Assembly (NCBI GenBank): GCA_964363475.1 | Contig: CAYIII010000001.1 | Span: forward strand, 2,170 to 66,169 | Direction: 5' to 3' | Source: an uncultured Candidatus Saccharibacteria bacterium | Lineage (GTDB): Bacteria > Patescibacteriota > Minisyncoccia > UBA6257 > UBA11618 | Length of the DNA: 64,000 nt | In this document: positions 24,329 to 47,138 of the stretch, piece by piece | How the letters are laid out: each line of letters begins with the position of its first letter | How positions within the stretch are numbered: position 1 is the first letter of the stretch | Position numbers and translations under genes: made by a program | The notes under the pieces: model-generated | Seen by the model: the letters and a program-made list of their open reading frames with translations, nothing else | Told to the model about the DNA's origin: nothing | Database searches by the model: none

Positions 24329-27223
24329 TTATTTTCTTATTCCCAGCCAAATTTTTGAGCCGTCTAAGTCAACCTCAATAAAATGCTCAACTTTTTCCGT
24401 TCTCTCAAAAATAATTTCTTCCGCGTTGATATCTTTTCTAAAACCCTTGTTGCTTTCTAAAACGCTTTGCAATTTTTTTGGCAAGTCGGCGTGCAAAATA
24501 ATTTTGTTTTGGGGGGAATATTCGGCATCGCGCCTTAATCCTTGAATCGCTCTCGCCAATTCCCTTACGGCGCCTTCATTTTTCAGTTCTTCGGTAATGT
24601 TAATATCCAGCTCAATCTCGTCATTAATTTTGGAATCAAAAATAATTTCTTTGACATTTATTTCATCGGCTAATATATGTAATAATTCTTCGTTATTTTT
24701 TAATTTTTCATTTTTAATTTTTAATTTCCTCAACGGCTGTCTTATCTTAATCCCCGCTTCCGCTCTTTTGGCCAAAGCCAAACTGGCCAACGTTCTGACA
24801 TCCGACATATCTTCAATTAATTTTTTACTTGCCCCTCGAAGCTTTAGCGAAGTGGGGTCAACCCTTGGCCATTCTTCCAAATGAACGGAAACGCCACCGC
24901 TTAAAGATTTATACAAAGCATCCGCGAAAAACGGGACGAATGGAGCGATTAGTTTGCTGATTTCCAGTAAAACATTTTGTAAGATAGGCAACGCCTCCGC
25001 GCGCTTGCGTGAACGGCGAATGTACCAATGAGACAAGTCGCTTACGAATAACTCTAAAATTTTAGCCGCATACCCTATTTCATATTTGTTAAGATTCTCT
25101 TCAACTTCTAAAATAGTTTCATTTAATCTGGAGAAAATCCACTTATCTAAAATATTACTTAACTGGAAATTAGTCCGCCAACTGGCGGATGGGACTTGGG
25201 GCTCATTTTTTGAATAGGTCTCAAAAAATACATATGAATTATAAAGCAACGAGATAAAACGCCTGAAGGCCTTGCTTAACTCCGCCTCATCAAACTTTTT
25301 GGGCTCTGCCGGAGGATTAACGGTATAGAAATACCACCTGATAACGTCTACTCCGTATTTATCAATCATCTCCCAAGGGTCAACGATATTATTTTTTGAT
25401 TTAGACATTTTCTGTCCATGTTTATCTAAAAGATGGCCAAGTGAAATAACATTTTTGTAAGGGGTGTCTTCATTTAATAAAACGCCAATGGCCAGCAATG
25501 TATAAAACCAGCCGCGAGTTTGGTCAATTGCTTCGCAAATATAATCCGCCGGATAACGGTTCGGATATTCTCCGCTCGCAAACGGCATGCCGCCGGAATC
25601 AAACCAAACATCCGCCACTTCTTTCACTCTTGTCATAGAGCCATTACACTTCGGACAAATTAATTTCACTTCATCAATATAAGGACGATGCAAATCAGCC
25701 GGCGCCTCACCGCCATGCTCTTTAAGTTCGTCTCTGCTGCCAATCACTAATTTTTCATCGCATTTTTCACACTCCCAAATAGGCAATGGCGTGCCCCAAT
25801 AACGCTCGCGAGAAATAGCCCAGTCCTTTACCCCTTGAAGCCACTCCCCGAAACGCCCGCTTTGAAGATGATGGGGAATCCAATTTATTTTCTCGTTGGC
25901 TTTTAACAAATCGCTTCTTAACTTACTCATCTCTATAAACCAAGAAAATCTGGGAAAGTAAATGAGGGCTCTGGAACAGCGCCAGCAAAAAGGATAGTCA
26001 TGTTCAATCGTGGTCTGGTAAAAAAGCAAATTTCTTTTTTGAAGGTCTTCTAATATATCTTTATCCGCTTCTTTAATATATTTGCCCGCGCCGGGCAATC
26101 CGTTTTTCATAATCCCCTGGTCATCAATAGTTACGGGAAAGTCGCTCATTTTGTTTCTCATTAAATTCAAGTCATCCTCGCCAAAAGAGGCAATATGAAT
26201 TAATCCGGTTCCATCTTCCGCGCTGACAAAATCAGCCTTCACCACTTCATGAGGACCGTTATTTTCATACAAGGACTCATATTTTAGGCCAATCATTTTT
26301 TTTCCGGAAAGTTTTTCTATGACCTCTATCTTAGTGTCCGAAGAAAATGGCGGCGCGTTAACAGCCCAAATATATTCGCCATTAATTTCATATTTTGTGT
26401 AAGTTAATTCCGGATTTACGGCAATAGCCAGATTTGCCGGCAAAGTCCACGGAGTGGTGGTCCATATTAATAAGTATTCGTTAACTTGGGATTTGGAACT
26501 TGGGATTTGGAACTTTATATATACTGACGGGTCCTTAACTTTCTTATACGCCCCCGGCTGTCCCAACTCATGGCTTGATAAAGATGTTTGGCAACGAGGG
26601 CACCACGGAACTACTTTATAAAACTTATTTAATAATCCCCTCTCGTCAATCTTTTTAAAAACGCCCCACAATTTTTCCAAATAATCGTTTTCGTAAGTTA
26701 TATACGCATTTTCAAAGTCCAACCAAAAACCGATTCTTTCAGTTAATTTTTCCCATTCATCCTTATATTTCCAGACGGATTCTTTGGCTTTTTTATTAAA
26801 TTCGGCAATGCCAAATTTTTCTATGTCCTGCTTGTTTTTAATTCCTAATTCTTTTTCAACTTCAATTTCCACGGGCAAGCCCTGCGTATCCCAACCGGCG
26901 CGACGGGGCGCATAATAACCTTGCATAGTTTTAAACCGTAAAATAATATCTTTAAAAGCACGGGCTAAGATATGATGAGTGCCGGGACGGCCATTGGCAG
27001 TCGGAGGACCTTCATAAAATATGAATTCTCTTTTCCCTTTTGATTGGCTTAAGGTTTTTGAAAAGATATTATTTTCTCGCCAAAAATCCAAAACTTTTTC
27101 TTCAATTTCTGGAAGATTAAACTGTTTTAAACCACGCAACATAAGTAAAATAATAAGCCAAAAACTGCTTTTTTTCAACGAAGGTTCGTTCATCAACAAC
27201 CATCCTCTATATAGCAACCCCAC
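24329..27223 (-). CDS. ileS: isoleucine--tRNA ligase
   Basis: 964 aa with the HIGH-class motif (PPTANGRPGTHH), KMSKS, and CP1 editing domain. Contains two in-frame repeat insertions (25165-25203 and 26484-26514). Confidence 0.9.
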   Translation of the reverse strand: MGLLYRGWLLMNEPSLKKSSFWLIILLMLRGLKQFNLPEIEEKVLDFWRENNIFSKTLSQSKGKREFIFYEGPPTANGRPGTHHILARAFKDIILRFKTMQGYYAPRRAGWDTQGLPVEIEVEKELGIKNKQDIEKFGIAEFNKKAKESVWKYKDEWEKLTERIGFWLDFENAYITYENDYLEKLWGVFKKIDERGLLNKFYKVVPWCPRCQTSLSSHELGQPGAYKKVKDPSVYIKFQIPSSKSQVNEYLLIWTTTPWTLPANLAIAVNPELTYTKYEINGEYIWAVNAPPFSSDTKIEVIEKLSGKKMIGLKYESLYENNGPHEVVKADFVSAEDGTGLIHIASFGEDDLNLMRNKMSDFPVTIDDQGIMKNGLPGAGKYIKEADKDILEDLQKRNLLFYQTTIEHDYPFCWRCSRALIYFPRFSWFIEMSKLRSDLLKANEKINWIPHHLQSGRFGEWLQGVKDWAISRERYWGTPLPIWECEKCDEKLVIGSRDELKEHGGEAPADLHRPYIDEVKLICPKCNGSMTRVKEVADVWFDSGGMPFASGEYPNRYPADYICEAIDQTRGWFYTLLAIGVLLNEDTPYKNVISLGHLLDKHGQKMSKSKNNIVDPWEMIDKYGVDVIRWYFYTVNPPAEPKKFDEAELSKAFRRFISLLYNSYVFFETYSKNEPQVPSASWRTNFQLSNILDKWIFSRLNETILEVEENLNKYEIGYAAKILELFVSDLSHWYIRRSRKRAEALPILQNVLLEISKLIAPFVPFFADALYKSLSGGVSVHLEEWPRVDPTSLKLRGASKKLIEDMSDVRTLASLALAKRAEAGIKIRQPLRKLKIKNEKLKNNEELLHILADEINVKEIIFDSKINDEIELDINITEELKNEGAVRELARAIQGLRRDAEYSPQNKIILHADLPKKLQSVLESNKGFRKDINAEEIIFERTEKVEHFIEVDLDGSKIWLGIRK
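25165..25203. repeat. Intragenic palindromic repeat element #1 in ileS (GGAAATTAG-TCCGCCAACTGGCGGA-TGGGACTTGG), encoding EPQVPSASWRTNFQLS
   Basis: Direct reading. The near-palindromic core TCCGCCAACTGGCGGA is shared with copies at 40281, 46589 and 36841. Confidence 0.8.
26484..26514. repeat. Intragenic tandem 14-nt repeat (AACTTGGGATTTGG x2) in ileS, encoding KFQIPSSKSQV
   Basis: Direct reading. Same TTGGGATTTGG motif as the folD insertion and the intergenic satellite regions. Confidence 0.7.
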
Positions 27224-27320
27224 CCCATATCCTTCATCAATACCGTCCTCGTTCAGAATAAAACTGAACTCGGATTAAATATTGATTCAGGATACGAGGT
27301 GGGGCTGTATACTAAACAAA

Positions 27321-27540
27321 AACCACCACCCTCTTTCTCGACGAGGCCGTGGAGGCGAATATATAAATTACGAAGCTTGGAGTAAGGCTATAAGCAAAAA
27401 AGCGCTGATAGAATCCCAAGTCCCGATACTAACAGTATCGGGACGGGTTGAGTTCGCTTTTTTGCTATATAGCACACGACAAGCGAGTCGCAATTTATAT
27501 GAGCCGTAACAGGTTGAGGAGAGGAAGGGGGTGGTGGTTT
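27321..27540. repeat. Structured repeat element, copy B. 5' AACCACCACCCTCTTTCTC (27321-27339) pairs with 3' GAGGAAGGGGGTGGTGGTT (27522-27540). Candidate ncRNA or MITE-like structured repeat
   Basis: Shares a 35-nt identical 5' block and a conserved 3' block with copy A (637-936). Internal hairpin cccgatact-aac-agtatcggg. Lies between divergent ileS and the Cas4-like gene. Confidence 0.6.
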
Positions 27541-27611
27541 ATATTGGGGTTGGAGAAAACAAGTGGTCTTTGGTTATAGATAAAAAAATTATTTTTCGTT
27601 AAAATAAAGCA

Positions 27612-28439
27612 ATGTCCGAATATTATACTTCCAGAAGAACCAAAAATCTTTACGATCCGAAATCAGCTTATCCCTTTAAATTAAGCCGCTCCAAAATAGA
27701 GCTGTTTTTGGCATGTCCTCATTGTTTCTATCTAGACCGCCGTCTGGGCGTGGGTCAGCCACCCGGCTTTCCTTTTAGTTTAAATTCGGCAGTAGACACT
27801 TTATTAAAAAAAGAATTTGACATTCACCGCGCCGCCCAATCAACTCACCCGCTGGTCAAATATTATAAAATTGACGCCATCCCGTTTAGCCATCCGGAAA
27901 TAAATAAATGGCGGGAAAATTTTGTCGGCATTCAGTATCACCATCAACCAACTAATTTTATAATCTCCGGCGCAATTGACGATCTCTGGATTAATGCGCA
28001 GGGCGAACTAATTGTCGTTGATTATAAATCCACCAGCAAAAACGAGGTCATCACCAACATTGATAAAGAATGGCAAGGCGGCTATAAACGCCAAATGGAA
28101 ATTTATCAATGGCTTCTGCGTCAGAATGGACACAAGGTCTCCAGCACCGGTTATTTTGTGTATTGCAATGGCCGCACCGATAAAGAGGCCTTTGACGGCA
28201 AGCTAGAATTTGACATAACGCTCATACCTTATGACGGAAAAGACGGTTGGATTGAAAAAGAAATTTTTAATGCCCACAAATGCCTTAACGATGAGAAAAT
28301 TCCGCCGTCTTCCGCCAGTTGCGATTTTTGCGCTTATGTGGATGCCGTCAAAGAAGTCACGGACGAAAAAAAGAAGACCAAACCTTCAAAGAAAAAAGCG
28401 GGAGAAGCGGGTCAGGGTTCGCTTATCGGCATTTTCTAA
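27612..28439 (+). CDS. Cas4-like PD-(D/E)XK nuclease (RecB-family nuclease domain with a 4-Cys cluster), stand-alone
   Basis: N-terminal CPHC, PD-(D/E)XK-like D...DDLW...VVDYKS, C-terminal C...CDFC cluster, and a Lys-rich tail. No CRISPR array or cas genes in the window. Confidence 0.55.
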   Translation: MSEYYTSRRTKNLYDPKSAYPFKLSRSKIELFLACPHCFYLDRRLGVGQPPGFPFSLNSAVDTLLKKEFDIHRAAQSTHPLVKYYKIDAIPFSHPEINKWRENFVGIQYHHQPTNFIISGAIDDLWINAQGELIVVDYKSTSKNEVITNIDKEWQGGYKRQMEIYQWLLRQNGHKVSSTGYFVYCNGRTDKEAFDGKLEFDITLIPYDGKDGWIEKEIFNAHKCLNDEKIPPSSASCDFCAYVDAVKEVTDEKKKTKPSKKKAGEAGQGSLIGIF

Positions 28440-28463
28440 AATCGTGCTACTATCTAAACGCCG

Positions 28464-29209: not shown

Positions 29210-29265
29210 CAAAAAATAAATTTTGACTTTTTATCTTTTATAAGCTATCCTTACCATAAACTTTC

Positions 29266-29769: not shown

Positions 29770-29792
29770 AAAATAAAATATAAAAATTAAAA

Positions 29793-29981
29793 ATGGCAAG
29801 GAAATCCGTAACCAAAAGAATAAGAATTACAAAAACCGGAAAATTAATGCGCCGCAAGATGGCGCAGGACCATTTTCGCGCTAAAAAAACGGGCAAACAA
29901 ATACAGTCAAAAAGGGAGAACAGGCAACTTGAAAGAATGGACGCTAAAGTTTTCCTTCCGTACCTTACATCTAAAAACTAA
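29793..29981 (+). CDS. rpmI: 50S ribosomal protein L35
   Basis: 62-aa basic protein, MARKSVTKRIRITKTGK... Confidence 0.85.
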   Translation: MARKSVTKRIRITKTGKLMRRKMAQDHFRAKKTGKQIQSKRENRQLERMDAKVFLPYLTSKN

Positions 29982-35442: not shown

Positions 35443-36732
35443 ATGGACGGAAGGCATTATTTAGAAAGTGTCTTTAAGCGAATTGATGAAACCGCTAAAA
35501 TACTTCAACTAAAACCCTACGTTATAAAAGAACTGAAAACTTTTTCCAGGGTTTTAGAAATGAGAATCCGGGTTGGCAAACAACATTTTACCGCTTATCG
35601 CATTCGTCATGTAAATCCTTACGCGACTGGCCATCGCCCCTATAAAGGCGGCTTGCGTTTTGATAAAGATACCGGTGGAGACCTGAATACCATCAAAGCG
35701 TTAGCGGTGGAAATGACTTTAAAATGCGCCACCGTGGGACCGGACCCGGAACGACGCTTGCCTTTTGGAGGCGCAAAGGGGGGGATAGGAATTAATGCAA
35801 AGATTTATTCTAAAGAACAAATAAGGGGGATAGTGGAAAAATTTGTGGATGAAATGGGGAACGCGATGGGGCCAACGGTTGATGTGCCGGCGCCTGATTA
35901 CGGAACTAATGAAGAAATAATGCGGCTTATTAGCACTCGTTATTGCAAATCTCACCCCTTTTCCGGTTCCGGAGCGGTAGTTACAGGCAAACCCCTAAGT
36001 AGGGGGGGAGGCGGTTGTCCGGGACGCAAGGAGGCAACTGGATTGGGAATGCTATACGCTTACAGTACTTTAAAAGAACTAAAAGCCCTGCCGGAAGCGG
36101 TGATCAACACAAAACATCCTCGAGCAGTAATTCACGGCTTTGGCAACGTAGGTTCTCATTTTGGTTTATATGCCGGTCAGTTCGGAATTAAAATTGTTGG
36201 AGTCGCCGAAGTTAATGCCACAATTTATAATGCCAACGGCATTAATATGGAGGAACTCTACGACTATGCCAATGAAAATAAAACCGTTGCCGGATTTCCC
36301 AATGCTCACGAAATTACTTTTGAAAATTTACTGCGCCAACCGCATGAAATAGACGCTCCCTGCGCCAAAGAAAATTCCATTGATGATAACTGGGCCAACA
36401 CCACGGAAGCAAAATTAGTTATTGAAGGCGCAAACGGCCCTTGTTTTCAAAAAGCCGAAGATATTTTTACCAAAAGAGGAATCGTGATAGTGCCTGACTT
36501 ATTAGCCAATGCCGGCGGCGTCACCGTGTCTTATTTTGAGTGGCAACAAGATATTGAAGGAGCGCAATACGACAAAAAGACCATATTTGAACAATTAGAA
36601 AAATACATGCGCACCGGCACGGAGGGCGTTGTAAAAATGGCGCAAGAATATCGCACAGACCTGCGGACGGGCGCTTATATTTGGTCTATTAAGTACCTTA
36701 ACGACGCTATTTGCGCCAAACACGGCTGGTAA
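35443..36732 (+). CDS. gdh: Glu/Leu/Phe/Val dehydrogenase family protein (glutamate dehydrogenase)
   Basis: Catalytic Lys motif (FGGAKGGI) and the GFGNVGSH NAD(P)-binding motif. Confidence 0.8.
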   Translation: MDGRHYLESVFKRIDETAKILQLKPYVIKELKTFSRVLEMRIRVGKQHFTAYRIRHVNPYATGHRPYKGGLRFDKDTGGDLNTIKALAVEMTLKCATVGPDPERRLPFGGAKGGIGINAKIYSKEQIRGIVEKFVDEMGNAMGPTVDVPAPDYGTNEEIMRLISTRYCKSHPFSGSGAVVTGKPLSRGGGGCPGRKEATGLGMLYAYSTLKELKALPEAVINTKHPRAVIHGFGNVGSHFGLYAGQFGIKIVGVAEVNATIYNANGINMEELYDYANENKTVAGFPNAHEITFENLLRQPHEIDAPCAKENSIDDNWANTTEAKLVIEGANGPCFQKAEDIFTKRGIVIVPDLLANAGGVTVSYFEWQQDIEGAQYDKKTIFEQLEKYMRTGTEGVVKMAQEYRTDLRTGAYIWSIKYLNDAICAKHGW

Positions 36733-37636
36733 GCAATAGTCCCGAAACCAACCAAAATATTATCAGGCCGGAACGCAAAGTCCATAAAAAATGGTCAAAT
36801 AAACCAAGTAAAACTAATGCCAGAAGCATTATTTTCAAATTTCCAATTTCCATCCGCCAACTGGCAGGCCAATTTCCAATAAATAAATAAATTAAAAAAA
36901 TAAGAAATAACGAAAAACCAACCAGCCCTATTTCTACCGCAATAGTTAAATATAAATTATGAATGGGACGCTCGCCCATCGCAAAAGTTAAGCCGTGACC
37001 AAACCACGGTTTTTCTTTTATTTTTTCCCAAGCAAATTGATAATCGCTTAAACGGTTCTGTACGGAAAAGTCCTGATAATTAAAATTAACGCGGGGGAAA
37101 ATCGCCCAAGAAAACATCAAGCTCAAAGTTACGAACGTTAAAAAAACAATTAATAATAAGTCCTTATTATAATTAATTAAAAGAAAAAGCGCGCTTGCCA
37201 TTATTCCCACAATCCAGCCGGCCCGAGAAAAAGTCAAAATCAATCCTAGCCAATTTATAAATATCGTCGCAACGAATAAGAATAAAAATTTTTTATTGTA
37301 CAGAAAATAAACGCTTAACAAACTTAAAACCAAAAAAGTGGCTAAAATATTGGGATGAGGAAACAAGCCATAGGCCCTTAATAACCGTCCCCCATCAATA
37401 AAAACCCGGGCCAAGTCCTTATTAAGAGGGCTTAAAAAGGACTCGCCTAAAAAATATAAACCCAAACTTTTATGAGAAACAAACTGAATCAAGCCAAGAA
37501 GAGATTGCAACGCGCCCAAAATCGTCAGACCAATAAATATCCGCCTTATTGATAAAAAATTTTTATTTGCCCTTATTTCCATTGGAAAGGGCCGCTTTTT
37601 TAACCACCCTATCTTCCAAAAACCAAAGAAAAACAA
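36707..37636 (-). CDS. O-antigen ligase-like (Wzy_C) membrane protein
   Basis: Multi-TM protein; contains the in-frame palindromic repeat at 36841-36880 encoding NWPASWRMEIGN. Confidence 0.5.
   Translation of the reverse strand: MFFFGFWKIGWLKKRPFPMEIRANKNFLSIRRIFIGLTILGALQSLLGLIQFVSHKSLGLYFLGESFLSPLNKDLARVFIDGGRLLRAYGLFPHPNILATFLVLSLLSVYFLYNKKFLFLFVATIFINWLGLILTFSRAGWIVGIMASALFLLINYNKDLLLIVFLTFVTLSLMFSWAIFPRVNFNYQDFSVQNRLSDYQFAWEKIKEKPWFGHGLTFAMGERPIHNLYLTIAVEIGLVGFSLFLIFLIYLFIGNWPASWRMEIGNLKIMLLALVLLGLFDHFLWTLRSGLIIFWLVSGLLLTSRVWRK
36841..36880. repeat. Intragenic palindromic repeat element #4, in opposite orientation relative to the host gene compared with copies #1 and #3
   Basis: + strand reads TTCCAATTTCCA-TCCGCCAACTGGCAGG-CCAATTTCCAA, the reverse complement of the GGAAATTGG-core-GGAAATTGG arrangement. 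Confidence 0.8.
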
Positions 37637-38619: not shown

Positions 38620-40011
38620 TTATTTTAATTCATAAGAAACATTAAGGTCTGGAAGCATAGCGTTAATTGCCAACTCATCTTTCAATGCCTGCGCCAAAAC
38701 ATTGCCTTCTTTTTCTTCGCCTTGAACTAAAAATATATTTTTTAAATTTTGTCTTTGCGGCTTAATCCAATTTAATAATTGCGGTTTGTCGGCATGAGCG
38801 GAATAACCGCTAATGGCCTTAACCTTGCAATTCACATTAATCTCCTCGCCAAATATCTTAACTTTTTTCTCTCCATCCAATAATTTTCTTCCCAACGAAC
38901 CCATAGCTTGATAACCAACCACAAGCAATGTGCTGTTTGGGTCCGATAAATAACGGCGCTCGTGATGTAAAATTCTCCCGCCATTAGACATGCCGGAACC
39001 GGCAATAATCACCTTTGGAGGCAAGACATCATTAATTGATTTGGACTCTTCGGTAGTTAAGGTTGTCTTCAGGCCAGGAAAATTAAAATGCATACTGCCG
39101 TCAATCAAATAGCGGCGATTTTTCTCATAAACTTCGGTCAATTTAATCGCCAAAGGACTGTCAATAAAAACCGGGATTCTTGGAATTCGCTTTTGTTCAA
39201 CTAATTGGTCAATTTCAAAAATCATTTCCTGCGTTCGTTCCATGGCAAAAGCCGGAATCATTAAAACCCCATTACTTCTGACCACGTCCTCAATCAGGTC
39301 CTCAATGATTTCTTTTCTTTTTTCCAGGTCCTCGTGAATTCTGCCGCCATAAGTGGATTCCATTACGCAATAATCGGCCTCCGGCAATTCTTCTTTTGAG
39401 CCCAATAGCGGAGCCGGACTATTTCCCAAATCACCCGAAAAAACAATTTTAGTCCTTCCGTTATCAACAAGTATAAAACTTGAGCCCAAAATATGGCCAG
39501 CATTGTATAATCTCACTGATAAATTATCTATCTTAATGGATTGGTGATATTCCACTCCTTCCCATAATTGCATCGTCAATGAAATATCATTTGATGTGTA
39601 CAGTAATGGCTTATTTTTTTTATCAGCTTCTTGAGATAGAATATGCTCCGAATCCAAAAGTAAAAGCCCCGAGGCGTCTCTGGTGGGGGGAGTGGAAAAA
39701 ATTTTTCCGCCAAATCCCGATTTAACTAATTGAGGCAAGCGTCCAATGTGGTCAATATGAGAATGAGTAACAAAGACCGCTTTTATTTCTTTGGGGTCAT
39801 ACAAAAACGGCTCCCAATTATGGGCTTCGCAATAACTGCTTCCCTGATGCAATCCGCAATCTATCAAAATTTTAGTATCGCCATCTTCTAGCAAATAATT
39901 TGCTCCGGTAACCGATTTGACCGCCCCGTAGAAAGTTATCTTCATATGACAGATAATACCACTTGCTTGTCGCTCCAGGGAATTTTTTGGTTGTTTTTTT
40001 TGTGAATCCAC
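38620..40011 (-). CDS. MBL-fold beta-CASP ribonuclease (RNase J/CPSF-like)
   Basis: VTHSHIDHIG motif, beta-CASP region, C-terminal RNA-metabolising MBL domain. Confidence 0.7.
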   Translation of the reverse strand: MDSQKKQPKNSLERQASGIICHMKITFYGAVKSVTGANYLLEDGDTKILIDCGLHQGSSYCEAHNWEPFLYDPKEIKAVFVTHSHIDHIGRLPQLVKSGFGGKIFSTPPTRDASGLLLLDSEHILSQEADKKNKPLLYTSNDISLTMQLWEGVEYHQSIKIDNLSVRLYNAGHILGSSFILVDNGRTKIVFSGDLGNSPAPLLGSKEELPEADYCVMESTYGGRIHEDLEKRKEIIEDLIEDVVRSNGVLMIPAFAMERTQEMIFEIDQLVEQKRIPRIPVFIDSPLAIKLTEVYEKNRRYLIDGSMHFNFPGLKTTLTTEESKSINDVLPPKVIIAGSGMSNGGRILHHERRYLSDPNSTLLVVGYQAMGSLGRKLLDGEKKVKIFGEEINVNCKVKAISGYSAHADKPQLLNWIKPQRQNLKNIFLVQGEEKEGNVLAQALKDELAINAMLPDLNVSYELK

Positions 40012-41111
40012 CGCTCACTGCCCTTTCCGGTAATTGCCACGACATCGCCGGGCCCAGCCAAACTAACAGCTTTTTTAATAGCTTCTTTTCTGTCCAATAT
40101 TTTTTGAGCCCGAGGACAACCCGCGGCTATTTCATTAATAATGTCTTCCAGTTCTTCATTATATGAATCTTCATCCGTCAAGATGATTTCATCGCAATAT
40201 TGCCCGGCAATTTTACCCATTTCCGGACGCTTCCATTTATCTCTCCCCCCACCGGCCGCGCCTAATACACATATTAATTTGGAAATTGGTCCGCCAACTG
40301 GCGGATGGGAATTGGGATTTTTTTCTCTAAGGGCCTCATAAACTTTACGCAAAGAGTCCGGCGTATGAGCATAATCCAAAACCACGGCAAATGGTTCTTT
40401 TTTTAAAAATTCCATTCTTCCGGAAATTCCGGAGAACTCGCCCACGGCTTCTTTAATAATATCGCGCGCAATGCCTCGCGATTCCGCGAAAGCGACGGCG
40501 GCGCCGATATTATATTTATTAAAATCGCCAATTAAATTGGAAAACAAATCGCTTTTTTCATAAAGAATAATTTTTCCTCCTCCAACGGCATCTATGAAAT
40601 CTTTTGAGCTAGCATCGTCTTTATTAATTATAAATAATTTTGAGAATCCACTGCCCGCATACCTAAAAAAATCTAATTTGGCTTTTTTATAATTATCAAA
40701 CGAACCATGGGCTTCAATGTGTTCTGGAGACAAATTAGTAAAAATAACAGCATCCCACTTGATAAAACGGTGGCGACTTTGTGAAACCCCTTGAGAAGTT
40801 ACTTCTATTAGAGCGTAATCACATTTACCGACAACCGCTTTCTTCAAAAATCTTTGCAAGAAAAATCTTCCGGGCATTGTCATGGAGGACTCACCATTAC
40901 GCAAAGAAGAACTTACGGCTACTTTCTTTCCCGCTTTTTCTAAAATAAAAGCCGTAAGCTCTAAAACGGTGGACTTTCCTTTTGTGCCCGTAACACCTAA
41001 AACAAAAATGTTCCTTGAGGGAAAATCGCAGAATAAAGCGGCAAAAAAAGACCATAACCAGTGATAGATAAAAACCAGCCAAGAAAAACGATAAAATATC
41101 TTTCTAATCAT
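39942..41111 (-). CDS. Mur ligase family protein (MurE/MurF-like UDP-N-acetylmuramoyl peptide ligase)
   Basis: P-loop VLGVTGTKGKSTV, Mur ligase middle and C domains. In-frame palindromic repeat at 40281-40320 encoding KNPNSHPPVGGPISKL. Confidence 0.6.
   Translation of the reverse strand: MIRKIFYRFSWLVFIYHWLWSFFAALFCDFPSRNIFVLGVTGTKGKSTVLELTAFILEKAGKKVAVSSSLRNGESSMTMPGRFFLQRFLKKAVVGKCDYALIEVTSQGVSQSRHRFIKWDAVIFTNLSPEHIEAHGSFDNYKKAKLDFFRYAGSGFSKLFIINKDDASSKDFIDAVGGGKIILYEKSDLFSNLIGDFNKYNIGAAVAFAESRGIARDIIKEAVGEFSGISGRMEFLKKEPFAVVLDYAHTPDSLRKVYEALREKNPNSHPPVGGPISKLICVLGAAGGGRDKWKRPEMGKIAGQYCDEIILTDEDSYNEELEDIINEIAAGCPRAQKILDRKEAIKKAVSLAGPGDVVAITGKGSERWIHKKNNQKIPWSDKQVVLSVI
40281..40320. repeat. 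Intragenic palindromic repeat element #2 (GGAAATTGG-TCCGCCAACTGGCGGA-TGGGAATTGGGATTT)
   Basis: Direct reading; shares the core and flanks with #1, #3, #4 and ends in the TTGGGATTT motif. Confidence 0.8.
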
Positions 41112-41689: not shown

Positions 41690-41783
41690 ATAGTGAGCTT
41701 GTCCTGAGCCGCGCCGAAGGGCTTGTCGAACTATTGCTTCCATAATATAGGACTTTATGGCATAATTCCAGCTCATTTCAAAT

Positions 41784-43547
41784 ATGAGCTTCCAGCTAAT
41801 ATCACAATTCACGCCGCAAGGAGACCAGCCCCAAGCAATCGCAAAACTTGTTGATGGCGTTGAAAAAAATTTTAAAAATCAGGTTTTGTTAGGTATAACC
41901 GGCTCAGGCAAGACCTTCACGATGGCTTCAGTAATTAAAAAATTAAAAATGCCCGCCCTGGTAATTTCCCCGAACAAAACCCTTGCCGCCCAGCTATACC
42001 AGGAATTCAAATCTTTTTTCCCCAATAATGCCATCCAGTATTTTGTATCTTACTATGATTATTACCAACCAGAGGCCTATCTGCCTTTAAGCAATACTTA
42101 TATACAAAAAGAGGCCCGCGTAAATGCCGAAATTGATAAGTTGCGCCACGCAACTATCCAAAGCGTCTTAACAAGAAAAGACACACTGGTAGTGGCGTCT
42201 GTTTCTTGCATATACGGCATTGGCGACCCCGACCTCTATAAAAATGTAAGATTAGAATTAAGAGCCGGCCAAGTAATTAGCAGTCAGGACTTAATTCGCC
42301 ACCTTAATTTACTTCAATACCAAAGGAACGACAACGAACCGGGGTTGGGAGAATTTTCCGTAACAAATACGGCTAAAGGCAGCAGGATTTTTATTCATTT
42401 GGTAACCGACGAAAAAATTAATATTGAAATCAAAAAAAGGAAAATTACCTCATCCGCATCCATTTATCCGGCTAAATTTTGGGTTGCTCCGCAACACAAA
42501 TTTAATTTATCTTTACAAAATATAAAATCGGAAATGGAGCAAAGAATAGAAGAATTGCAATCCGCCAATAAATTTGAGGAAGCGGAACGGCTTGAAAAGA
42601 AAACATTATTTGACCTGGCAATGCTTAAAAAAAATAAATACGTAAACGGCATTGAAAATTATTCCCGCCATTTAAATTTTCGAACGCCGGGAGACCCGCC
42701 GTTAACTCTTTTGGATTACTTTCCCAAACCATTTTTATTATTTATAGACGAATCGCATATTTCCGTCCCCCAACTCAACGCCATGCAAGAAAGCGACCGC
42801 CGCCGCAAGCAAGTTTTGGTGGACTACGGTTTTCGTCTACCTTCGGCTCTTGATAATCGCCCGCTCACTTTCGTGGAGTTTAACCAAAAAATAGGACAAA
42901 CTATTTTTGTTTCCGCCACTCCAAGCCGCTATGAATTAGAAAGGGCAAAACAAAACGGACAAATAGCGGAACAATTAGTTCGGCCCACCGGCATTTTAGA
43001 CCCAAAAATAAAAATAAGGTCCGCTCAAAATCAAGTTCACGATTTGCTTAAAGAAATCAAAATAAGAATTGATAAAAACGAAAGGGTCCTAGCGTTAACT
43101 TTAACTAAAAGAGCGTCCGAGGACTTAACAGAATTTTTATTAAAAAGGGGAATTAAAGCCAATTATCTGCATTCAGAAATAAAAACACTAAAAAGAACAG
43201 AAGTGTTGAGCTCGCTTCGCAGAGGAGAAATAGATGTGATTGTGGGAATAAACTTATTGAGAGAAGGACTGGATTTGCCGGAAGTAAGTTTGGTAGCCAT
43301 TTTAGACGCTGACCGCGAAGGATTTTTAAGAAGCCATCGCAGTTTGATTCAAATGGCCGGACGCGCCGCCCGCTCCATTAATGGCGAAGTTATTTTATAC
43401 GCCGATTTTATGACCGAATCAATAAAAAAGACAATTCTGGAAACAGTGAGACGGCGTAAAATACAAATAAAATACAATAAGCAAACTAACATAAAGCCGA
43501 AAGCAATAATAAAGGACGAATACGCGGTATTGTCAAAAACCCAATAA
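41784..43547 (+). CDS. uvrB: excinuclease ABC subunit B, short form lacking the C-terminal UvrC-interaction domain
   Basis: Walker A GITGSGKTFT, the beta-hairpin region, helicase motifs. Ends shortly after the last helicase motif (587 aa). Confidence 0.85.
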   Translation: MSFQLISQFTPQGDQPQAIAKLVDGVEKNFKNQVLLGITGSGKTFTMASVIKKLKMPALVISPNKTLAAQLYQEFKSFFPNNAIQYFVSYYDYYQPEAYLPLSNTYIQKEARVNAEIDKLRHATIQSVLTRKDTLVVASVSCIYGIGDPDLYKNVRLELRAGQVISSQDLIRHLNLLQYQRNDNEPGLGEFSVTNTAKGSRIFIHLVTDEKINIEIKKRKITSSASIYPAKFWVAPQHKFNLSLQNIKSEMEQRIEELQSANKFEEAERLEKKTLFDLAMLKKNKYVNGIENYSRHLNFRTPGDPPLTLLDYFPKPFLLFIDESHISVPQLNAMQESDRRRKQVLVDYGFRLPSALDNRPLTFVEFNQKIGQTIFVSATPSRYELERAKQNGQIAEQLVRPTGILDPKIKIRSAQNQVHDLLKEIKIRIDKNERVLALTLTKRASEDLTEFLLKRGIKANYLHSEIKTLKRTEVLSSLRRGEIDVIVGINLLREGLDLPEVSLVAILDADREGFLRSHRSLIQMAGRAARSINGEVILYADFMTESIKKTILETVRRRKIQIKYNKQTNIKPKAIIKDEYAVLSKTQ

Positions 43548-43565
43548 TCAATTAGTATAACTGGC

Positions 43566-43820
43566 ATGCCGATAACAAGTTCCGCTAAAAAGGCCTTAAG
43601 ACAAAATAGGAAAATTAGGGTCATTAACGAAAAGCGCAAAAAGAATCTTAAAGACACTATTAAAAAATTTAAAAAAGATTTAAAATCGGAAGGTTTGTCG
43701 TTAGTTTATCAAGCCCTAGATAAAGCCGCTAAAATGAATCTTATAAAGAAAAATAAGGCCTCTCGCCTAAAATCCCGCTTATCTCACTTGATAGCAAAAT
43801 CTGTTAAGGCGGTTTCGTAA
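43566..43820 (+). CDS. rpsT: 30S ribosomal protein S20
   Basis: MPITSSAKKALRQNRKIRVINEKRK... typical S20. Confidence 0.85.
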   Translation: MPITSSAKKALRQNRKIRVINEKRKKNLKDTIKKFKKDLKSEGLSLVYQALDKAAKMNLIKKNKASRLKSRLSHLIAKSVKAVS

Positions 43821-43828
43821 CAGGAGGA

Positions 43829-46372
43829 CTAGGGAAGAGGGATGCCACTTTCTATCTCTGAGAGAGAGCCGTCAATATATTCATAATTATAAAAACTGTC
43901 TATCACCCAGTAAGGAAGCGCCCTCACATAACTCGGCAGTCCTCCTTGTTCCTTTTCATATAACTCCGCAAATTCTCCTACTAATCTTTCGGTTTCTTCT
44001 ACTAAGAGACGTCTCATAAATTCACATCTTTTTTCTTCATCAGCTATATACTCACTGTCACCCACCTTAGAAAGCAATGACTTAGCTTGATGCTCATCAA
44101 TAGGAAAACCATATTCTCTTAAGAGAAATCCGAAAGCTCTTGCCGTTAATAAAGGGTCCTCTAATAAGAGGTCGCTTCCCGTTCTTCTGCTTTTCTTATA
44201 AAAAAGGTTTAACTCTTCACAAGGTATACAATACACCATAGAAACATCCGGGATATTGACGCCTTTCTCGGCCAACCACCTATCTCTAAGCTCAACAAGA
44301 GTACCGATATTGCCAACATTACCAACAATAGTAACGGGGGCGGAAGTAAGGGCCCTACCAAAAACACCTAGCCCCTTCCCCAAAGATGTCCACCAGCTTG
44401 TCGGGGGTTTTGGCGCAGTAACCGGAACTGTTGTAAGAGGTTTAACTACAATCCCCCTTGGTCCTGACTCTAAAGCTTTAAGTGGCTTGATATCGGGAAT
44501 ATCGGAAATTTGAGCCGGTTTAGAATAAACTTGTTTCCTTCGTATTCTAATGTCTGGTAGTTCTTGCCTTGCATCTACTACAAATAAGTCCGGAACCGTT
44601 GTTGGTCGAGACGGAAGACTAGGAAGCGCTTGTTTGGCATGCAAATCTAGCACCTTGCCCCTTGCATGTCTATATGCTCTATAAATATGTTCATCAACAA
44701 TCGATGGTGATAGCTTATTCCCTTGATTCCATTCATAGATTCTAGATTGAACAACTTCTTGTTGTGGAAGCGATAAATCATACATATATTTTTCAAATAA
44801 TTCTACTAACCTGCCCTCTTCCTTTCGAATGACAGGGAGTTGTTGAGTCTTCCTGGCGGCATTGACATAATGCGCTGGTCTAACATCTATTTGCGAAAAG
44901 GGCTTTCCCCCTCTCGCGTGCTCTTCAACTATTCGTCTTTGCGAGTCAGTAAAATATGATGGATGTTTTTCGACAGCTTCTAAAATCTTAATTTTATCTT
45001 TCGTACCTCCTTTTAAGTCGACACCTGCTTTTGTATCTACGCTATTAAAATATTTACTAATAACAAGCTGCCCTCCCCTAGGAGAAATTTCACGCATGGT
45101 CTCTGGTAAATGCCCCTCATCAATTAATTTATTTAAAATAGTTGTATAATCTAATTTATCTCCATTTTTCCAAGTTAATCTTAGTTCTGATACTCTCCGC
45201 TCAATTATAGTGATTTTTCCTTCATTAAACGCCTCAAGAATTAATCTCTTTGTTTCTTCTTCTTCTTTTAAAATATCAGGTAGCGTTGCAATCCTGGCCT
45301 GGATCGCATCCCAGCTTTCACTAACGACTTTTGGTTTTATCGATTCATTTTTAGCAATCTCTATAAAAGTATGCTTGCTGCCGTCTTCGCGACGGGTAAG
45401 ATAAGCTCTAGCAATATCTCTCATTCTGGAAGTAAAATACTGGGGATATTCATCAATGACGCTTAATAAGCGAGCTTCACTTTCTAAGTCAGAAAAAAGC
45501 GTAGCCGTTTTTGAAAGAGCGTCATTAAGAGAATTTCGAACGGATCTTACTGATAAATTAGTTCCGTATAACTTATTATACTCCAATGTTATTTCTGCTA
45601 CCGCGCCTCTACCAACAAAACCCTGATTAGTGTAAATTTCCATTATCCTATATTGTTGTTCGGTAAAAACTCCAGGATATTTGAGCAATAAATCCCCCAG
45701 AGGAGATCTAACTCCTATTGCTTTTTTGGAATCGTGTATATGTACAAGAATACCAGCGTAAGCATCCATTACTTCATCCACAGTCCAATCTAGTTCTTGA
45801 GCAATTTTAGTAAATAAATCACCTTGTTGATTTTCTGGCTTTAAAAGCGATTCTATAAGCTTTTTTTCGTCATGATTTTTCGGCAAAGAATTGGCATAAT
45901 CTTGAAAAGCTTTTTTAGAAAAAGGATGCTGTGAGGCAATCTCTGTTGGGACAATTAATGATATTTTATTTCCAGTTTTAATATTTTCGATGTAAAAATC
46001 GCTACCGGGTCCAGCTTGATATAATGGTAAATCCGTTCTATCGAATCTTATTCGAAATCCTAACTCCTCTATTTCCTTATAGTGATCACTGTAAACATCC
46101 AATATAGCTTCCGCTTTCGCATGGGACCTACTAAATGTTTCAGGTTCATACGACGAAACCTTATCCAAATTCAGCCACTTTTCTCCCGTTACTACATCTT
46201 CTTCGCCACCATATTTATTGTAAACCTTTTCTAAATCTGTACGAAATGCTTCCCACAATTCTTCTAACGATAGGGGAGCGGCCCAAGTTGCAGAAAATAC
46301 CACAAAAAATAGACAGTAAAATAAGGTTAACGATAGAAAGCCACGCATAGGTAAATCATAACATAATAGCAA
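43829..46372 (-). CDS. large hypothetical secreted or membrane-anchored protein (847 aa)
   Basis: N-terminal hydrophobic segment, Pro-rich linker (about aa 600-650), no recognisable catalytic motif. Confidence 0.45.
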   Translation of the reverse strand: MLLCYDLPMRGFLSLTLFYCLFFVVFSATWAAPLSLEELWEAFRTDLEKVYNKYGGEEDVVTGEKWLNLDKVSSYEPETFSRSHAKAEAILDVYSDHYKEIEELGFRIRFDRTDLPLYQAGPGSDFYIENIKTGNKISLIVPTEIASQHPFSKKAFQDYANSLPKNHDEKKLIESLLKPENQQGDLFTKIAQELDWTVDEVMDAYAGILVHIHDSKKAIGVRSPLGDLLLKYPGVFTEQQYRIMEIYTNQGFVGRGAVAEITLEYNKLYGTNLSVRSVRNSLNDALSKTATLFSDLESEARLLSVIDEYPQYFTSRMRDIARAYLTRREDGSKHTFIEIAKNESIKPKVVSESWDAIQARIATLPDILKEEEETKRLILEAFNEGKITIIERRVSELRLTWKNGDKLDYTTILNKLIDEGHLPETMREISPRGGQLVISKYFNSVDTKAGVDLKGGTKDKIKILEAVEKHPSYFTDSQRRIVEEHARGGKPFSQIDVRPAHYVNAARKTQQLPVIRKEEGRLVELFEKYMYDLSLPQQEVVQSRIYEWNQGNKLSPSIVDEHIYRAYRHARGKVLDLHAKQALPSLPSRPTTVPDLFVVDARQELPDIRIRRKQVYSKPAQISDIPDIKPLKALESGPRGIVVKPLTTVPVTAPKPPTSWWTSLGKGLGVFGRALTSAPVTIVGNVGNIGTLVELRDRWLAEKGVNIPDVSMVYCIPCEELNLFYKKSRRTGSDLLLEDPLLTARAFGFLLREYGFPIDEHQAKSLLSKVGDSEYIADEEKRCEFMRRLLVEETERLVGEFAELYEKEQGGLPSYVRALPYWVIDSFYNYEYIDGSLSEIESGIPLP

Positions 46373-47138
46373 AATCAGTTAGAGCGGTTTCGTAGTCCAA
46401 TTTTCCCGATTTAACGGCAATGTCATAATCGGCCATTAATTTTTTATTTTCAGGACTTGTCGTGAAAGCCAAAACATTAAATATCTTAGCCGGGTCTTCT
46501 TCTTTTATTAATGTCTCCAAAATGGGTATTTTGCTTAAAAAATTACCGCGAGATAATTTATTAACTAAATTAAAAAAATCGTACCCTAATTGGAAATTGG
46601 TTCGCCAGTTGGCGGATGGAAATTGGAAATTATACAAAGCCAATTTGTCTAGCTCCGTAACAAGTCCCCAGCAATCCCCCCTATATTGCCTTAATAAATT
46701 ATTTAAAAAATCCAAAGGCAATTTTAGGTCTCTTTTTTCCAATTCTTTTTGCGCAAACTTTTCCCAGTCCTTATTTTGTAAAGTATCAAACTCTTGAAAA
46801 ATAACCGGTTTCTTCAAGAGAAAATCAAATTCCTTATTGGGCTTGTCATCAGAGACCAGCAATAAAATAAGCTCCTTTGTTGATAAGTTCTTCTTGAAAA
46901 TTTCTTTTAATTCCGATTGGAAGGGATTGGCAACTACTGCCATTCTGAAAGAATCAAACAAAGAAACCGCCGACACAAATTCCTTCAAACGAATCAAATC
47001 GTCGCCCTCCTCTAAATCAAACTTATCAACGCTTAAATGAGAATGTTTTAATTGATACTGCTTAACAATCTCCTTCTGCTTATGAAATCTGAAATATGAT
47101 TCCGGGCCGTAGAGAAAAATAATCATTGAATCTGGCAA
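46356..47138 (-). CDS. holA: DNA polymerase III subunit delta-like protein
   Basis: N-terminal IIFLYGPESYF (typical HolA start). Contains the in-frame palindromic repeat at 46589-46630. Confidence 0.55.
   Translation of the reverse strand: MPDSMIIFLYGPESYFRFHKQKEIVKQYQLKHSHLSVDKFDLEEGDDLIRLKEFVSAVSLFDSFRMAVVANPFQSELKEIFKKNLSTKELILLLVSDDKPNKEFDFLLKKPVIFQEFDTLQNKDWEKFAQKELEKRDLKLPLDFLNNLLRQYRGDCWGLVTELDKLALYNFQFPSANWRTNFQLGYDFFNLVNKLSRGNFLSKIPILETLIKEEDPAKIFNVLAFTTSPENKKLMADYDIAVKSGKLDYETALTDFAIML
46589..46630. repeat. Intragenic palindromic repeat element #3 (ATTGGAAATTGG-TTCGCCAGTTGGCGGA-TGGAAATTGGAAATT), encoding NFQFPSANWRTNFQL
   Basis: Direct reading; same frame and peptide as copy #1 in ileS. 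Confidence 0.8.

Follow-up and report, generated by a model that had tools for sequence, protein, structure and literature searches.

Five short sites inside protein-coding genes are probably, though by a modest measure, copies of a very small non-autonomous mini-element of the REP/MITE kind that spreads as DNA and is kept in tolerant loops. They were found in the window, which is the whole 64-kb stretch of DNA that was analysed. The element looks like a selfish DNA of very small size that has not been described before: it is multi-copy, its consensus is open in six frames and all frames are used, it lies in loops, its murE copy is an insertion, its range is cross-phylum, and its sites show nesting and turnover. 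From the comparison between species we infer that it is mobile; within populations, presence/absence polymorphism was not observed.

The ancestral core is TCCGCCAGCTGGCGGA, a perfect, GC-rich palindrome of 16 nt centred on CAGCTG, usually with G on its 5' side and TGG on its 3' side. An earlier note on this DNA had described 7-bp arms around a 2-nt centre, but the ancestral core has no spacer. In this genome the unit spans 33-42 nt and the core is placed between direct heptamer repeats, (TGGAAAT)n. When the core pattern was searched on both strands of the window with at most 2 mismatches, 13 matches were found compared with 2.5 +/- 1.8 in 100 shuffles, and 13 was reached by 0 of the 100. The half-sites alone are not over-represented in the 64 kb (TGGCGGA 7, TCCGCCA 14), nor is GGAAATTGG by itself in the window (40 matches vs 34 expected), while CAGCTG, a PvuII-type site, occurs there once vs 4.4 times expected. 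The consensus contains no stop codon in any of its six frames, a rare property which is shared by 1.06% of the 42-mers in the window and by 0.35% of shuffled consensus sequences.

The core arms keep phase with the TGG period of 7 in the flanks, which are members of a wider family of TGG-phased heptamer tracts. Period-7 tracts in which TTGG, CCAA or CAAT is repeated at least three times occur 4, 1 and 4 times in the window and are absent from 50 shuffles. The tract without a core inside ileS (Table 1) consists of the same kind of repeat as the palindrome flanks, and its site is a second hyper-variable IleRS loop where homologues carry other repeat-derived peptides. The remaining tracts in Table 1 show that repeats of the flank type occur genome-wide.

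Table 1. Host genes, element copies and heptamer tracts in the window
Feature	Position	Strand	Remarks
ileS	24329..27223	-	ORF as listed; called protein P0121, 954 aa; Pfam match
Wzy_C-family membrane protein gene (O-antigen-ligase-like)	36707..37636	-	P0241, 291 aa; Pfam match
murE-type Mur ligase gene	39942..41111	-	Pfam match; TIGR01085 above its cut-off
holA (DNA polymerase III delta), borderline	46356..47138	-	TIGR01128, E = 2.7e-22
tsaE	51111-51542 (ORF)	-	Pfam TsaE, E = 4.7e-34
Copy 1	25163..25204	+	Antisense in ileS; orientation from the G...TGG flanks
Copy 2	36838..36880	-	Sense in Wzy_C gene; opposite orientation by flanks
Copy 3	40279..40320	+	Antisense in murE; peptide NPNSHPPVGGPIS
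Copy 4	46590..46631	+	Antisense in holA; peptide FQFPSANWRTNFQ (FPSANWRTNFQL)
Copy 5, decayed, probable member	51316..51357	+	In frame in tsaE; core TCCGCCAATCGGCGAA; peptide KLNSPIGGQNY
Heptamer tract without core	26486..26518	+	(TTGGGAT/TTGGAAC)x4 inside ileS; peptide KFQIPSSKSQ
Intergenic heptamer tract	429..604	-	(CAATNNN)n on plus strand
Related heptamer tract	1029-1061		
Related heptamer tract	17236-17468		

The source organism is a groundwater CPR bacterium. The earlier observation is confirmed and its interpretation is partly supported: all four copies of the palindromic repeat (~42 nt each) were recovered where they had been placed in four essential or housekeeping genes, ileS, the Wzy_C gene, murE and holA, each in frame within one long minus-strand ORF whose translation gives the peptide claimed. 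The site in tsaE is probably a fifth member, being 64% identical to copy 3 and in register, and with it all five copies are intragenic. The holA call is a borderline one (TIGR01128, 79.5 bits against a cut-off of 80), and 766 relatives were found. Central symmetry has been lost in 4 of the 4 copies and two also have arm mismatches. Copy 3 is the best preserved, with one transition at the centre; copy 4 has CAGTTG at the centre and TTCGCCA as its left arm, the left arm of copy 2 has decayed to CCTGCC, and copy 1, with the centre CAACTG, is no longer open in six frames. The direct repeats reported around every copy, GGAAATTGG, are exact in copies 2-4, whereas copy 1 has the degenerate flanks GGAAATTAG and GGGACTTGG. 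Copy 1 adds VPSASWRTNFQL to the linker that precedes the anticodon-binding domain, and copy 2 contributes IGNWPASWRMEIGN (NWPASWRMEIGN) to a loop that joins predicted membrane segments. IleRS and holA do gain a near-identical peptide (PSASWRTNFQL in IleRS and FPSANWRTNFQL in holA), but the statement that the same peptide is encoded in either orientation holds for the core residues and not for the flanks.

In the protein alignments, no columns vary more in length than those at the four sites, and the closest relatives are without the element at each of them. Judged from the sequences, the murE copy stands out as a clean insertion when compared with its two nearest relatives: L038 and L040 neatly lack 36 and 33 nt here, their flanks are about 90% identical, and their empty sites already read AAAATTCGAAATT or AAAATCAAAATT, which are heptamer-like. 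Among 120 aligned homologues, the core peptide HPP(V/A)GG was found at this loop only in the window's partial duplicate P0003 and in P0009. The latter is a MurE of 64% identity with the element at the same codons, in the same orientation and the same frame; its core is kept at 17 of 18 nt and at 6 of 6 third positions, compared with a third-position identity of 0.40 across the gene. This match would fit an old insertion with constraint on the core, or gene conversion, rather than a freely decaying passenger. The copies had been regarded as lineage-specific insertions for which orthologues should lack the segment; this applies to murE relative to its nearest relatives but not to P0009, and the other three sites are hot-spot loops that have been occupied again and again, with turnover and nesting.

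In the AlphaFold model, which is a good one (mean pLDDT 88.8), the loop that connects helix 251-263 to strand 279-284 contains the murE insert, which lies in the only segment with pLDDT below 50. This is a low-confidence surface loop, and the insert is predicted to be disordered. The ileS linker is highly variable in length among 120 homologues, and L037 is 14-18 nt shorter there and unalignable. In homologues the Wzy loop contains heptamers alone, heptamers with a nested hairpin, or a remnant shorter by 21 nt. The holA linker is also variable (70 homologues, some with heptamer-type peptides), and at this site the relative L040 carries a GC-rich nested palindrome unlike the present one. The ileS and Wzy sites look like replacement or partial deletion, and a clean empty site is found in only one of the four cases. 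Other hairpins are nested within the core as well.

Scanning of genomes yielded 33 loci, of which about 15 are true copies, and scanning of metagenomes at least 120 loci; the distinct low-GC copies from database scans number at least 119 and, together with the decayed tsaE copy, take the family beyond the four sites first noticed. The carriers are Patescibacteria, Bacteroidota, including the isolate Sunxiuqinia dokdonensis, and low-GC MAGs labelled otherwise, and the core sequence is near-identical across phyla. As far as sequence matches go, the family is cross-phylum and not specific to this lineage, and it is not peculiar to this reduced genome. Low-GC viral contigs contain 10 matches to the palindrome vs 1 for each of two composition-matched control palindromes. 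Among the database matches, some from GC-rich genomes are evidently coding sequence that matches by chance.

Long ORFs contain 45 of the at least 119 distinct low-GC copies. These genic copies occupy all six frame/orientation classes (12, 12, 10, 5, 4 and 2), with 19 sense and 26 antisense to the gene among the matches listed, and the encoded peptides are unrelated across frames (PSASWRT, HPPAGG, IRQLAD, GPPAGGW, VRQLADG, SASWRM). The open consensus and the use of all frames point to an element that acts at the DNA level; its nucleotides are conserved beyond what the proteins need, in keeping with the expectation of the earlier note. Host genes elsewhere include those for LeuRS, SerRS, TsaD, DnaG, RNR, RecG, a GT2 and an MBL hydrolase. 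The non-genic settings are terminator tips, riboswitch and group-I-intron stems, partial tRNA duplicates and intergenic repeats; one copy is within a cobalamin-riboswitch stem and another is read as lying at the tip of stem P8 of a group-I-like intron. The sites, which are unrelated protein loops, stem tips and tRNA fragments, share nothing but insertion tolerance. Heptamer flanks are missing in 48 of 93 low-GC copies (coding genes, RNA stems and tRNA fragments included), and no target-site duplication was seen flanking the copies in these contexts. On the mRNA-sense strand the core of the two best copies folds at -10.8 kcal/mol, with z-scores of -2.4 and -3.1, and the core is on the tips of longer hairpins more commonly than with shuffled partner flanks (p = 0.003).

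Among the 114 core-bearing loci, the largest ORF family shared across loci is a stand-alone GIY-YIG protein of about 85 aa (PF01541, E = 1e-14 to 1e-18). It occurs at 9 loci in 6 distinct contexts, all in other genomes, and the palindrome is mostly 17-58 nt from the ends of its ORF. Y1_Tnp ORFs are present at 4 loci (L003, L107, L150 and L165), 1-3.7 kb from the core, and the Y1 gene of L003 is flanked by another palindrome, TCCACCCCAAGGGTGGA. No homologue of either enzyme is encoded in the 64-kb window, viral contigs yielded no member of the GIY-YIG family, and none of the 114 loci revealed a transposase-bearing element with the palindrome at its end. From these sequences, the palindrome-flanked GIY-YIG ORFs appear as the only candidate autonomous unit.

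We propose that the element would spread as DNA and not as a protein module, and that the encoded peptides would be passengers. Its likeliest route may be a single-stranded DNA hairpin handled by a trans-acting nuclease or transposase without target-site duplication, and the candidates for this machinery are the ~85-aa stand-alone GIY-YIG nuclease flanking the palindrome in other genomes and a Y1 (RAYT-like) transposase. The copies surviving in a compact, gene-dense genome would be those which alter the length in multiples of three, have no stop in the landing frame, as the six-frame-open consensus would guarantee, and fall in linkers or surface loops tolerating 7-14 extra residues. The same loops could be hit again, and copies could decay, be partly or precisely deleted, or gain hairpins nested in their centre. 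A simple transposition model does not explain the constant heptamer flanks.

These flanks can be accounted for differently, by a cassette that moves between heptamer microsatellites and not by transposition. (TGGAAWT)n tracts would arise and persist in tolerant loops, the constant flanks would be landing pads, and GC-rich hairpin cores would be copied by short-homology recombination, template switching or gene conversion; the bacteria are naturally competent, and external DNA could also be the donor. The same loops indeed hold heptamers alone (P0247, ATTGAAA ATTGGAA ATTGGAA...), with this core or with other cores, and the heptamer-like sequence at the empty murE sites, the different palindrome at the relative's holA site and the phase of the core arms point in the same direction, as does a core conserved between orthologous copies with drifted flanks, which fits gene-conversion homogenisation. 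Nevertheless, we consider this explanation unlikely, if worth serious attention: about half of the low-GC copies compared have no heptamer flanks, 9-15 nt of flank is little for recombination of the RecA type, and the GIY-YIG association is left unexplained.

It is more doubtful still that the palindrome is a functional host site under selection with the in-frame copies as recruited sites, whether it binds a dimeric DNA-binding protein (regulator, restriction-modification, segregation or uptake) or forms a structural RNA hairpin. The near-identity of the core across phyla, its retention in the murE orthologues and the scarcity of CAGCTG in the window suggest such a function, but the loss of symmetry in every window copy, the arm mismatches in two, the closed frames of copy 1, the decay of the fifth copy, the mixed orientation, the ordinary half-site counts and the closest relatives without the element at all four sites argue against it, and the locations have only insertion tolerance in common. 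The earlier preference for recognition by a dimeric DNA-binding protein, and against a hairpin, is not supported either: the core is spacer-less and is often on the tips of longer hairpins and RNA stems. Selection on the peptide itself, as a PSASWRT-like module recruited by housekeeping proteins, is suggested by the gain shared by IleRS and holA; it is effectively refuted by the use of all six frames and orientations with unrelated peptides, the element is also found in non-coding RNA stems, terminators and intergenic repeats, and the murE insert is predicted to be disordered, so we give it very little credence. There is scarcely any chance of a coincidental match or an assembly or library artefact. 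Chimeric reads can yield perfect palindromes and chance matches do exist in GC-rich genomes, but the insert-bearing proteins were assembled independently in three samples, and the copies are in frame, mutually diverged, present in an isolate genome and enriched over shuffles and control palindromes.

When the mini-element we favour is compared with known systems, its behaviour is that of the RPEs, which are likewise repeated palindromic DNA in frame in unrelated housekeeping genes of a small genome and add peptide segments compatible with the protein fold (PMC10969869); its insertion, too, is in frame and fold-compatible. RPEs are ~100-150 bp long and form roughly ten families in the genus Rickettsia (PMC10969869), whereas the block here is ~40-42 nt and the murE insert 33-36 nt, and a 16-nt palindrome with heptamer repeats, in at least two phyla and also in RNA stems and tRNA fragments, is unlike them. 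Given this size and architecture, in which the family is unrelated to RPEs, homology is unlikely, in line with the earlier note. REP/BIME sequences are palindromes of 20-40 bp that have a strong tendency to fold into hairpins and cause no target duplication, and the hairpin unit here is comparable (16 nt, or 18-20 nt with the G...TGG context). They have an unpaired GTAG or CGTC tag at one end, and some are within genes (PMC3733652). In the present case the core is flanked by G and TGG with no GTAG/CGTC in the aligned contexts, and all the window copies, and the 45 in long ORFs elsewhere, depart from the extragenic habit of REPs. REP sequences are also species-specific, unlike this cross-phylum palindrome. 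The Y1_Tnp genes near some copies, one with a palindrome of similar style, recall the REP/RAYT pair; none of the Y1 genes at the loci compared has this palindrome directly beside it.

MITEs (Correia, ERIC, BOX, Nezha) are similar in being non-autonomous and multi-copy, with in-frame ORF fusion and inverted-repeat ends. Their usual length is 50-500 bp, they generate target-site duplications, and the terminal inverted repeats of a cognate IS match theirs; no such feature was found here, as far as the 114 loci show for the IS, and the heptamer flanks are constant and hence not site-derived. With about 5 copies in 64 kb and the half-site counts above, the element does not resemble DUS/USS. A mobile cassette based on a homing endonuclease or a free-standing GIY-YIG gene would have a nuclease ORF linked to the repeat; a candidate ORF of this kind is present in the 6 independent contexts of other genomes and absent from the window. 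The element does not fit the defining features of RPEs, REPs or MITEs, and it behaves like RPEs and the yeast mitochondrial GC clusters (e.g. GC42). No published description of it was found in literature searches, consistent with the earlier remark that such elements are not widely described.

By analogy, GC clusters are the closest counterpart in way of working, and fungal mitochondrial double-hairpin elements are a similar one. GC clusters are organellar, mostly intergenic and unrelated in sequence, they have putative dinucleotide target duplications (PMC4478555), and they are not known to have heptamer flanks. Like the present element, they are GC-rich hairpin mini-elements of an AT-rich compact genome, with conserved stems and units that merge, nest and shuffle, and intron-encoded endonucleases are proposed as helpers in their mobilisation (PMC4478555).

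The four copies of the repeat in ileS, the Wzy_C gene, murE and holA (copies 1 to 4, respectively) share the ~40-nt block TTGGAAATTGG-TCCGCCA(AC/GT)TGGCGGA-TGGRAATTGGRA when they are aligned with copy 2 reverse-complemented, and each of them lies within its own long minus-strand ORF. The core pattern, with at most 2 mismatches, gave 13 matches on both strands of the window when compared with 2.5 +/- 1.8 in shuffled sequences. The four in-frame copies reported in the earlier note were confirmed by alignment and by this shuffle comparison, and translation of the host ORFs returned the same peptides as it had written. The table below also lists a probable fifth copy. No family in Rfam covers the elements of the window, and the MurE with its insert is present in independent assemblies from three samples. 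The window is part of a Hainich groundwater genome of the Patescibacteria (CPR), Paceibacteria/Parcubacteria in type.

Coordinates of the host genes, repeats and related features in the window and in loci (L-numbers) from other genomes
Feature	Sequence	Position	Strand or orientation	Evidence or remark
IleRS ORF, host of copy 1	window	24329-27223	minus	Pfam/NCBIfam
Wzy_C protein ORF, host of copy 2	window	36707-37636	minus	Pfam/NCBIfam
murE-type Mur ligase ORF, host of copy 3	window	39942-41111	minus	Pfam/NCBIfam
holA ORF, host of copy 4	window	46356-47138	minus	NCBIfam, 79.5 bits against a cut-off of 80
Probable fifth copy, decayed, in frame in tsaE	window	51316-51357		64% identity in register
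Core-less heptamer tract inside ileS	window	26486-26518		encodes KFQIPSSKSQ
Intergenic heptamer tracts	window	429-604, 1029-1061, 17236-17468		same kind as the flanks
GC-rich element, two copies	window	620-945 and 27300-27545 (+)		~250-330 nt
40-nt GC-rich repeat GTTCGACAAGCCCTTCGACGCGGCTCAGGACAAGCTCACT	window	10121-10160 and 41692-41731	inverted	98% identical
IleRS second variable loop	window	26467-26511
IleRS second variable loop of the relative	L037	10730-10830
~250-nt intergenic repeat with two palindrome copies	L116	900-5200
GIY-YIG ORFs adjoining tRNA genes	L133	1-720
	L145	3600-4314
	L162	1600-2304		also holds the group-I-like intron
Repeats with a different palindrome around a Y1_Tnp ORF	L003	2709-2727 and 3434-3450

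From the copies in other genomes, the ancestral core is a perfect 16-nt palindrome, TCCGCCAGCTGGCGGA, which has no spacer and so replaces the 7-bp arms with a 2-nt centre described earlier. The centre in all four window copies is CAACTG or CAGTTG; in both, the inner C of AGCT has changed to T on one of the two strands. The window has a single CAGCTG where 4.4 are expected, a deficit which is suggestive and not significant. In the two best copies the core folds into a 6-bp hairpin of -10.8 kcal/mol, with z-scores of -2.4 and -3.1. The flanks are heptamer repeats (TGGAAAT)n rather than any special 9-mer, and the 7-nt phase of TGG runs on from the right arm into them (TGGCGGA|TGGGAAT|TGG). By direct translation, the consensus has zero stop codons in all six frames, reading LEIGPPAGGWKLEI, WKLVRQLADGNWK and GNWSASWRMEIGN on the plus strand and NFQFPSASWRTNFQ, ISNFHPPAGGPIS and FPISIRQLADQFP on the minus strand. 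Such openness is rare, being found in 1.06% of the 42-mers of the window and 0.35% of shuffled consensus sequences; tandem arrays of the heptamers TGGAAAT and TGGAATT are six-frame open too. Copy 1 has since gained a stop in a frame that is not used.

To compare the sites with their homologues, we used the syntenic relative GCA_964488085.1 (loci L037 and L040; 82-85% nucleotide identity), which spans all four of them. At murE this relative lacks exactly 33 nt, and a second one (L038, 74% amino-acid identity) lacks 36 nt; the flanks of these empty sites are ~90% identical to the window, and both sites are already heptamer-like (AAAATTCGAAATT and AAAATCAAAATT). The holA site of GCA_964488085.1 carries a different GC-rich nested palindrome, CCCGCCC..GGGCGAGGCTCGCCC..GGGCGG, at the same position, its Wzy site is 21 nt shorter with an apparent left flank and left arm kept, and its ileS linker is 14-18 nt shorter and unalignable. 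The four sites thus differ: compared with these relatives, murE has a clean insertion, and at the other three another palindrome, a remnant or an unalignable linker is found.

In the protein alignments of the four families, no columns vary more in length than those of the sites. Heptamer-type peptides (NSKFKIQNS, ENWKLEIENW, NFQLPIFNFQL) stand at the same sites in many CPR homologues, with or without other GC-rich cores. For example, the DNA of one Wzy_C homologue (P0247) has pure heptamers at the Wzy loop, and that of another protein (P0243) has the same flanks and a CCGCC/GGCGG stem, into the middle of which a second hairpin, GGCGAGCCTCGCC, is nested. In the ileS linker of the homologue P0133 the core lies in a different frame and at a different offset, and it is therefore an independent insertion. 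P0009, a MurE 64% identical to that of the window, has the element at the same codons and in the same orientation and frame, with 17/18 nt and 6/6 third positions of the core identical when compared to a gene-wide third-position identity of 0.40; the flanks of the element have drifted. Therefore, the murE element is perhaps an old one that precise deletion has removed more than once, its core kept by constraint or gene conversion; alternatively, the very same site may have received it repeatedly. An AlphaFold model (mean pLDDT 88.8) places the murE insert between helix 251-263 and strand 279-284, in a surface loop which holds the sole segment with pLDDT <50.

A scan of one genome per species gave 33 loci with ~15 true copies, the GC-rich loci being chance coding matches. 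The true copies carry the record labels Daviesbacteria, Saccharibacteria and other Patescibacteria, and Prolixibacteraceae and Bacteroidales (Bacteroidota), including the isolate Sunxiuqinia dokdonensis DH1; some are in low-GC MAGs recorded as Gammaproteobacteria. With the metagenome scan (at least 120 loci), the pooled set consists of at least 119 distinct low-GC copies. Among the matches listed, 45 of 119 are in long ORFs, and these use all six frame and orientation classes (12, 12, 10, 5, 4 and 2), with no bias in orientation: 19 run in the sense of the host gene and 26 are antisense to it. Confirmed host genes elsewhere encode LeuRS, SerRS, TsaD, DnaG, class II RNR, RecG, GT2 and an MBL hydrolase.

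Context was classified for the 93 copies with full flanks among the matches listed: 28 have heptamer flanks, 9 have one heptamer-like unit, 8 are at the tip of an extended hairpin and 48 are in other contexts, which include terminator tips, riboswitch and intron stems and an intergenic repeat. In cobalamin riboswitches of four loci (L069, L078, L153 and L164), the peripheral stem between GCCACUG and GGGAAGG is the same palindrome. In L162 it is at the tip of the putative P8 stem of a group-I-like intron in a tRNA gene, read by eye from conserved core motifs. The intergenic repeat of L116, a contig that looks like Bacteroidota by gene content, is found between unrelated genes at several places in 5 kb. 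Where heptamers are lacking, the two flanks of a copy complement each other better than shuffled flank pairs do (p = 0.003), and no target-site duplication can be seen. The palindrome had 10 matches in low-GC viral contigs, compared with 1 and 1 for two composition-matched control palindromes. A viral origin was rejected, as in viral contigs the flank-specific pattern matches nothing but a GC-rich coding region, in 4 of them.

When the ORFs of the 114 core-bearing loci among the matches listed were clustered, the largest cross-locus family was a stand-alone GIY-YIG protein of ~85 aa (PF01541, E = 1e-14 to 1e-18). It is found in 9 of these loci, representing 6 independent contexts, in most of which the palindrome is 17-58 nt from the ends of the GIY-YIG ORF. 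These ORFs adjoin tRNA genes in L094, L091/L088 and L064 as well as in the loci of the table, and beside them are partial duplicates of the same tRNA in which the 16-nt palindrome stands in place of 3-10 nt; in L133 a 75-nt unit of the tRNA-Val 5' part and the palindrome is present as four tandem copies. An origin from the tRNA variable arm was rejected, since ARAGORN calls only the neighbouring intact tRNA-Val and the palindrome is in the partial duplicates. Y1_Tnp (RAYT-like) ORFs are in 4 loci, at a distance of 1-3.7 kb from the core. In L003, a Daviesbacteria MAG, the Y1_Tnp ORF has on both sides a direct 32-nt repeat containing a different palindrome of similar style, TCCACCCCAAGGGTGGA, which suggests that CPR have REP/RAYT-like systems. 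We infer an enzyme link from other genomes, because neither family is encoded in the window (no tblastn homologue better than E = 0.2). No relatives of the GIY-YIG family were found in IMG/VR.

Our results agree with a hairpin element of very small size, non-autonomous and spreading as DNA, whose mobility we infer from sequence comparison. Copies would be kept in the compact genome only where they lengthen a tolerant loop in frame and without a stop, and the added peptides would be passengers. Since all six frames are used, a protein module, with the peptide itself selected, is excluded. The interpretation in the earlier note is supported in part. The decay of the copies and the absence of the element from the closest relatives make a functional binding site unlikely; the conserved core in the orthologous murE copies still leaves it a low probability. 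Cassette exchange between heptamer tracts would move cores and account for the hot spots and the variety of cores, but it gives no account of the half of the copies without heptamers.

As for what drives such a spreading hairpin element, we think it possible, though improbable, that the ~85-aa GIY-YIG nuclease drives a new kind of minimal selfish element, with the 16-nt palindrome as its cargo or footprint. The nuclease would cut DNA that is single-stranded or structured (the tips of hairpins, the cloverleaf DNA of tRNA genes, and terminators), and the break would be healed with the palindrome, excised or copied from another copy, often at a cost of 3-10 nt; the in-frame peptides of essential CPR genes would be scars. 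This would explain the palindrome on the tips of longer hairpins, the short segments replaced in partial tRNA duplicates by GIY-YIG genes, the absence of target duplications, and the near-identity across Patescibacteria and Bacteroidota.

When compared with known elements, the repeat is like the Rickettsia RPEs in behaviour (PMC10969869), but not in size. Closest in behaviour are the mitochondrial GC clusters, with stem conservation, nesting, shuffling and an unresolved mechanism (PMC4478555). Unlike REP sequences (PMC3733652), it has no GTAG/CGTC tag and does not share their extragenic location, and no RAYT gene was found flanked by this palindrome. Unlike a MITE, it has no target-site duplication outside heptamer contexts, and no transposase-bearing parent IS ending in the palindrome was found among the 114 core-bearing loci. 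No description of the core sequence, the peptides, the heptamers or the CPR phenomenon was found in the searchable literature, the coverage of which is incomplete.

The notable features are the minimal size, the six-frame-open design, the cross-phylum identity, the hairpin-tip placement and the GIY-YIG association. If the reading as a mobile element is true, a specific, traceable DNA element would explain many odd low-complexity loops in Patescibacteria core proteins (peptides of the NSKFQIP, GNWKLEI, PPAGG and SASWR types), the 16-nt palindrome would be among the smallest repeat units behaving as mobile, and different phyla, down to episymbionts whose genomes are ~1 Mb, would be able to share so small a unit. 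Selfish DNA in genomes that leave hardly any room between genes may owe its survival to such six-frame openness. For annotation, the element is a hazard through spurious ORFs and inflated 'unique' protein regions, and this extends to riboswitch, intron and tRNA-like sequences holding it. The stand-alone GIY-YIG link offers a testable candidate function for a widespread nuclease family.

Other observations concern IleRS and the remaining repeats. Most close IleRS homologues (1120-1210 aa; P0123-P0240) have an inserted His_Phos_1 (PF00300) domain, which the window IleRS and its nearest relative P0122 (954 aa) are without. At the IleRS second variable loop the insert of the relative encodes SFAKASEDKKASQGK, and RQAQGK/SFAKASEGK-type peptides stand there in many homologues; both look like products of yet another CPR GC-rich repeat family. 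The two copies of the longer GC-rich element share a 41-nt 5' block (AACCACCACCCTCTTTCTCGACGAGGCCGTGGAGGCGAATA) and a ~45-nt 3' block, with mutually complementary block ends and a variable middle. The copy at 620-945 has inverted heptamer tracts on either side and no match in Rfam; the element may be a further mobile element or a structured RNA that has escaped annotation. The 40-nt repeat, a second repeat family in the window, has one copy directly after tRNA-Pro and the other upstream of ruvA. As to tetramers, AGCT-specific avoidance was rejected, AGCT being at an unremarkable 0.81 of expectation. GATC (observed/expected 0.16), ACGT (0.34) and TCGA (0.35) are strongly avoided over the whole window, which suggests restriction-modification pressure.
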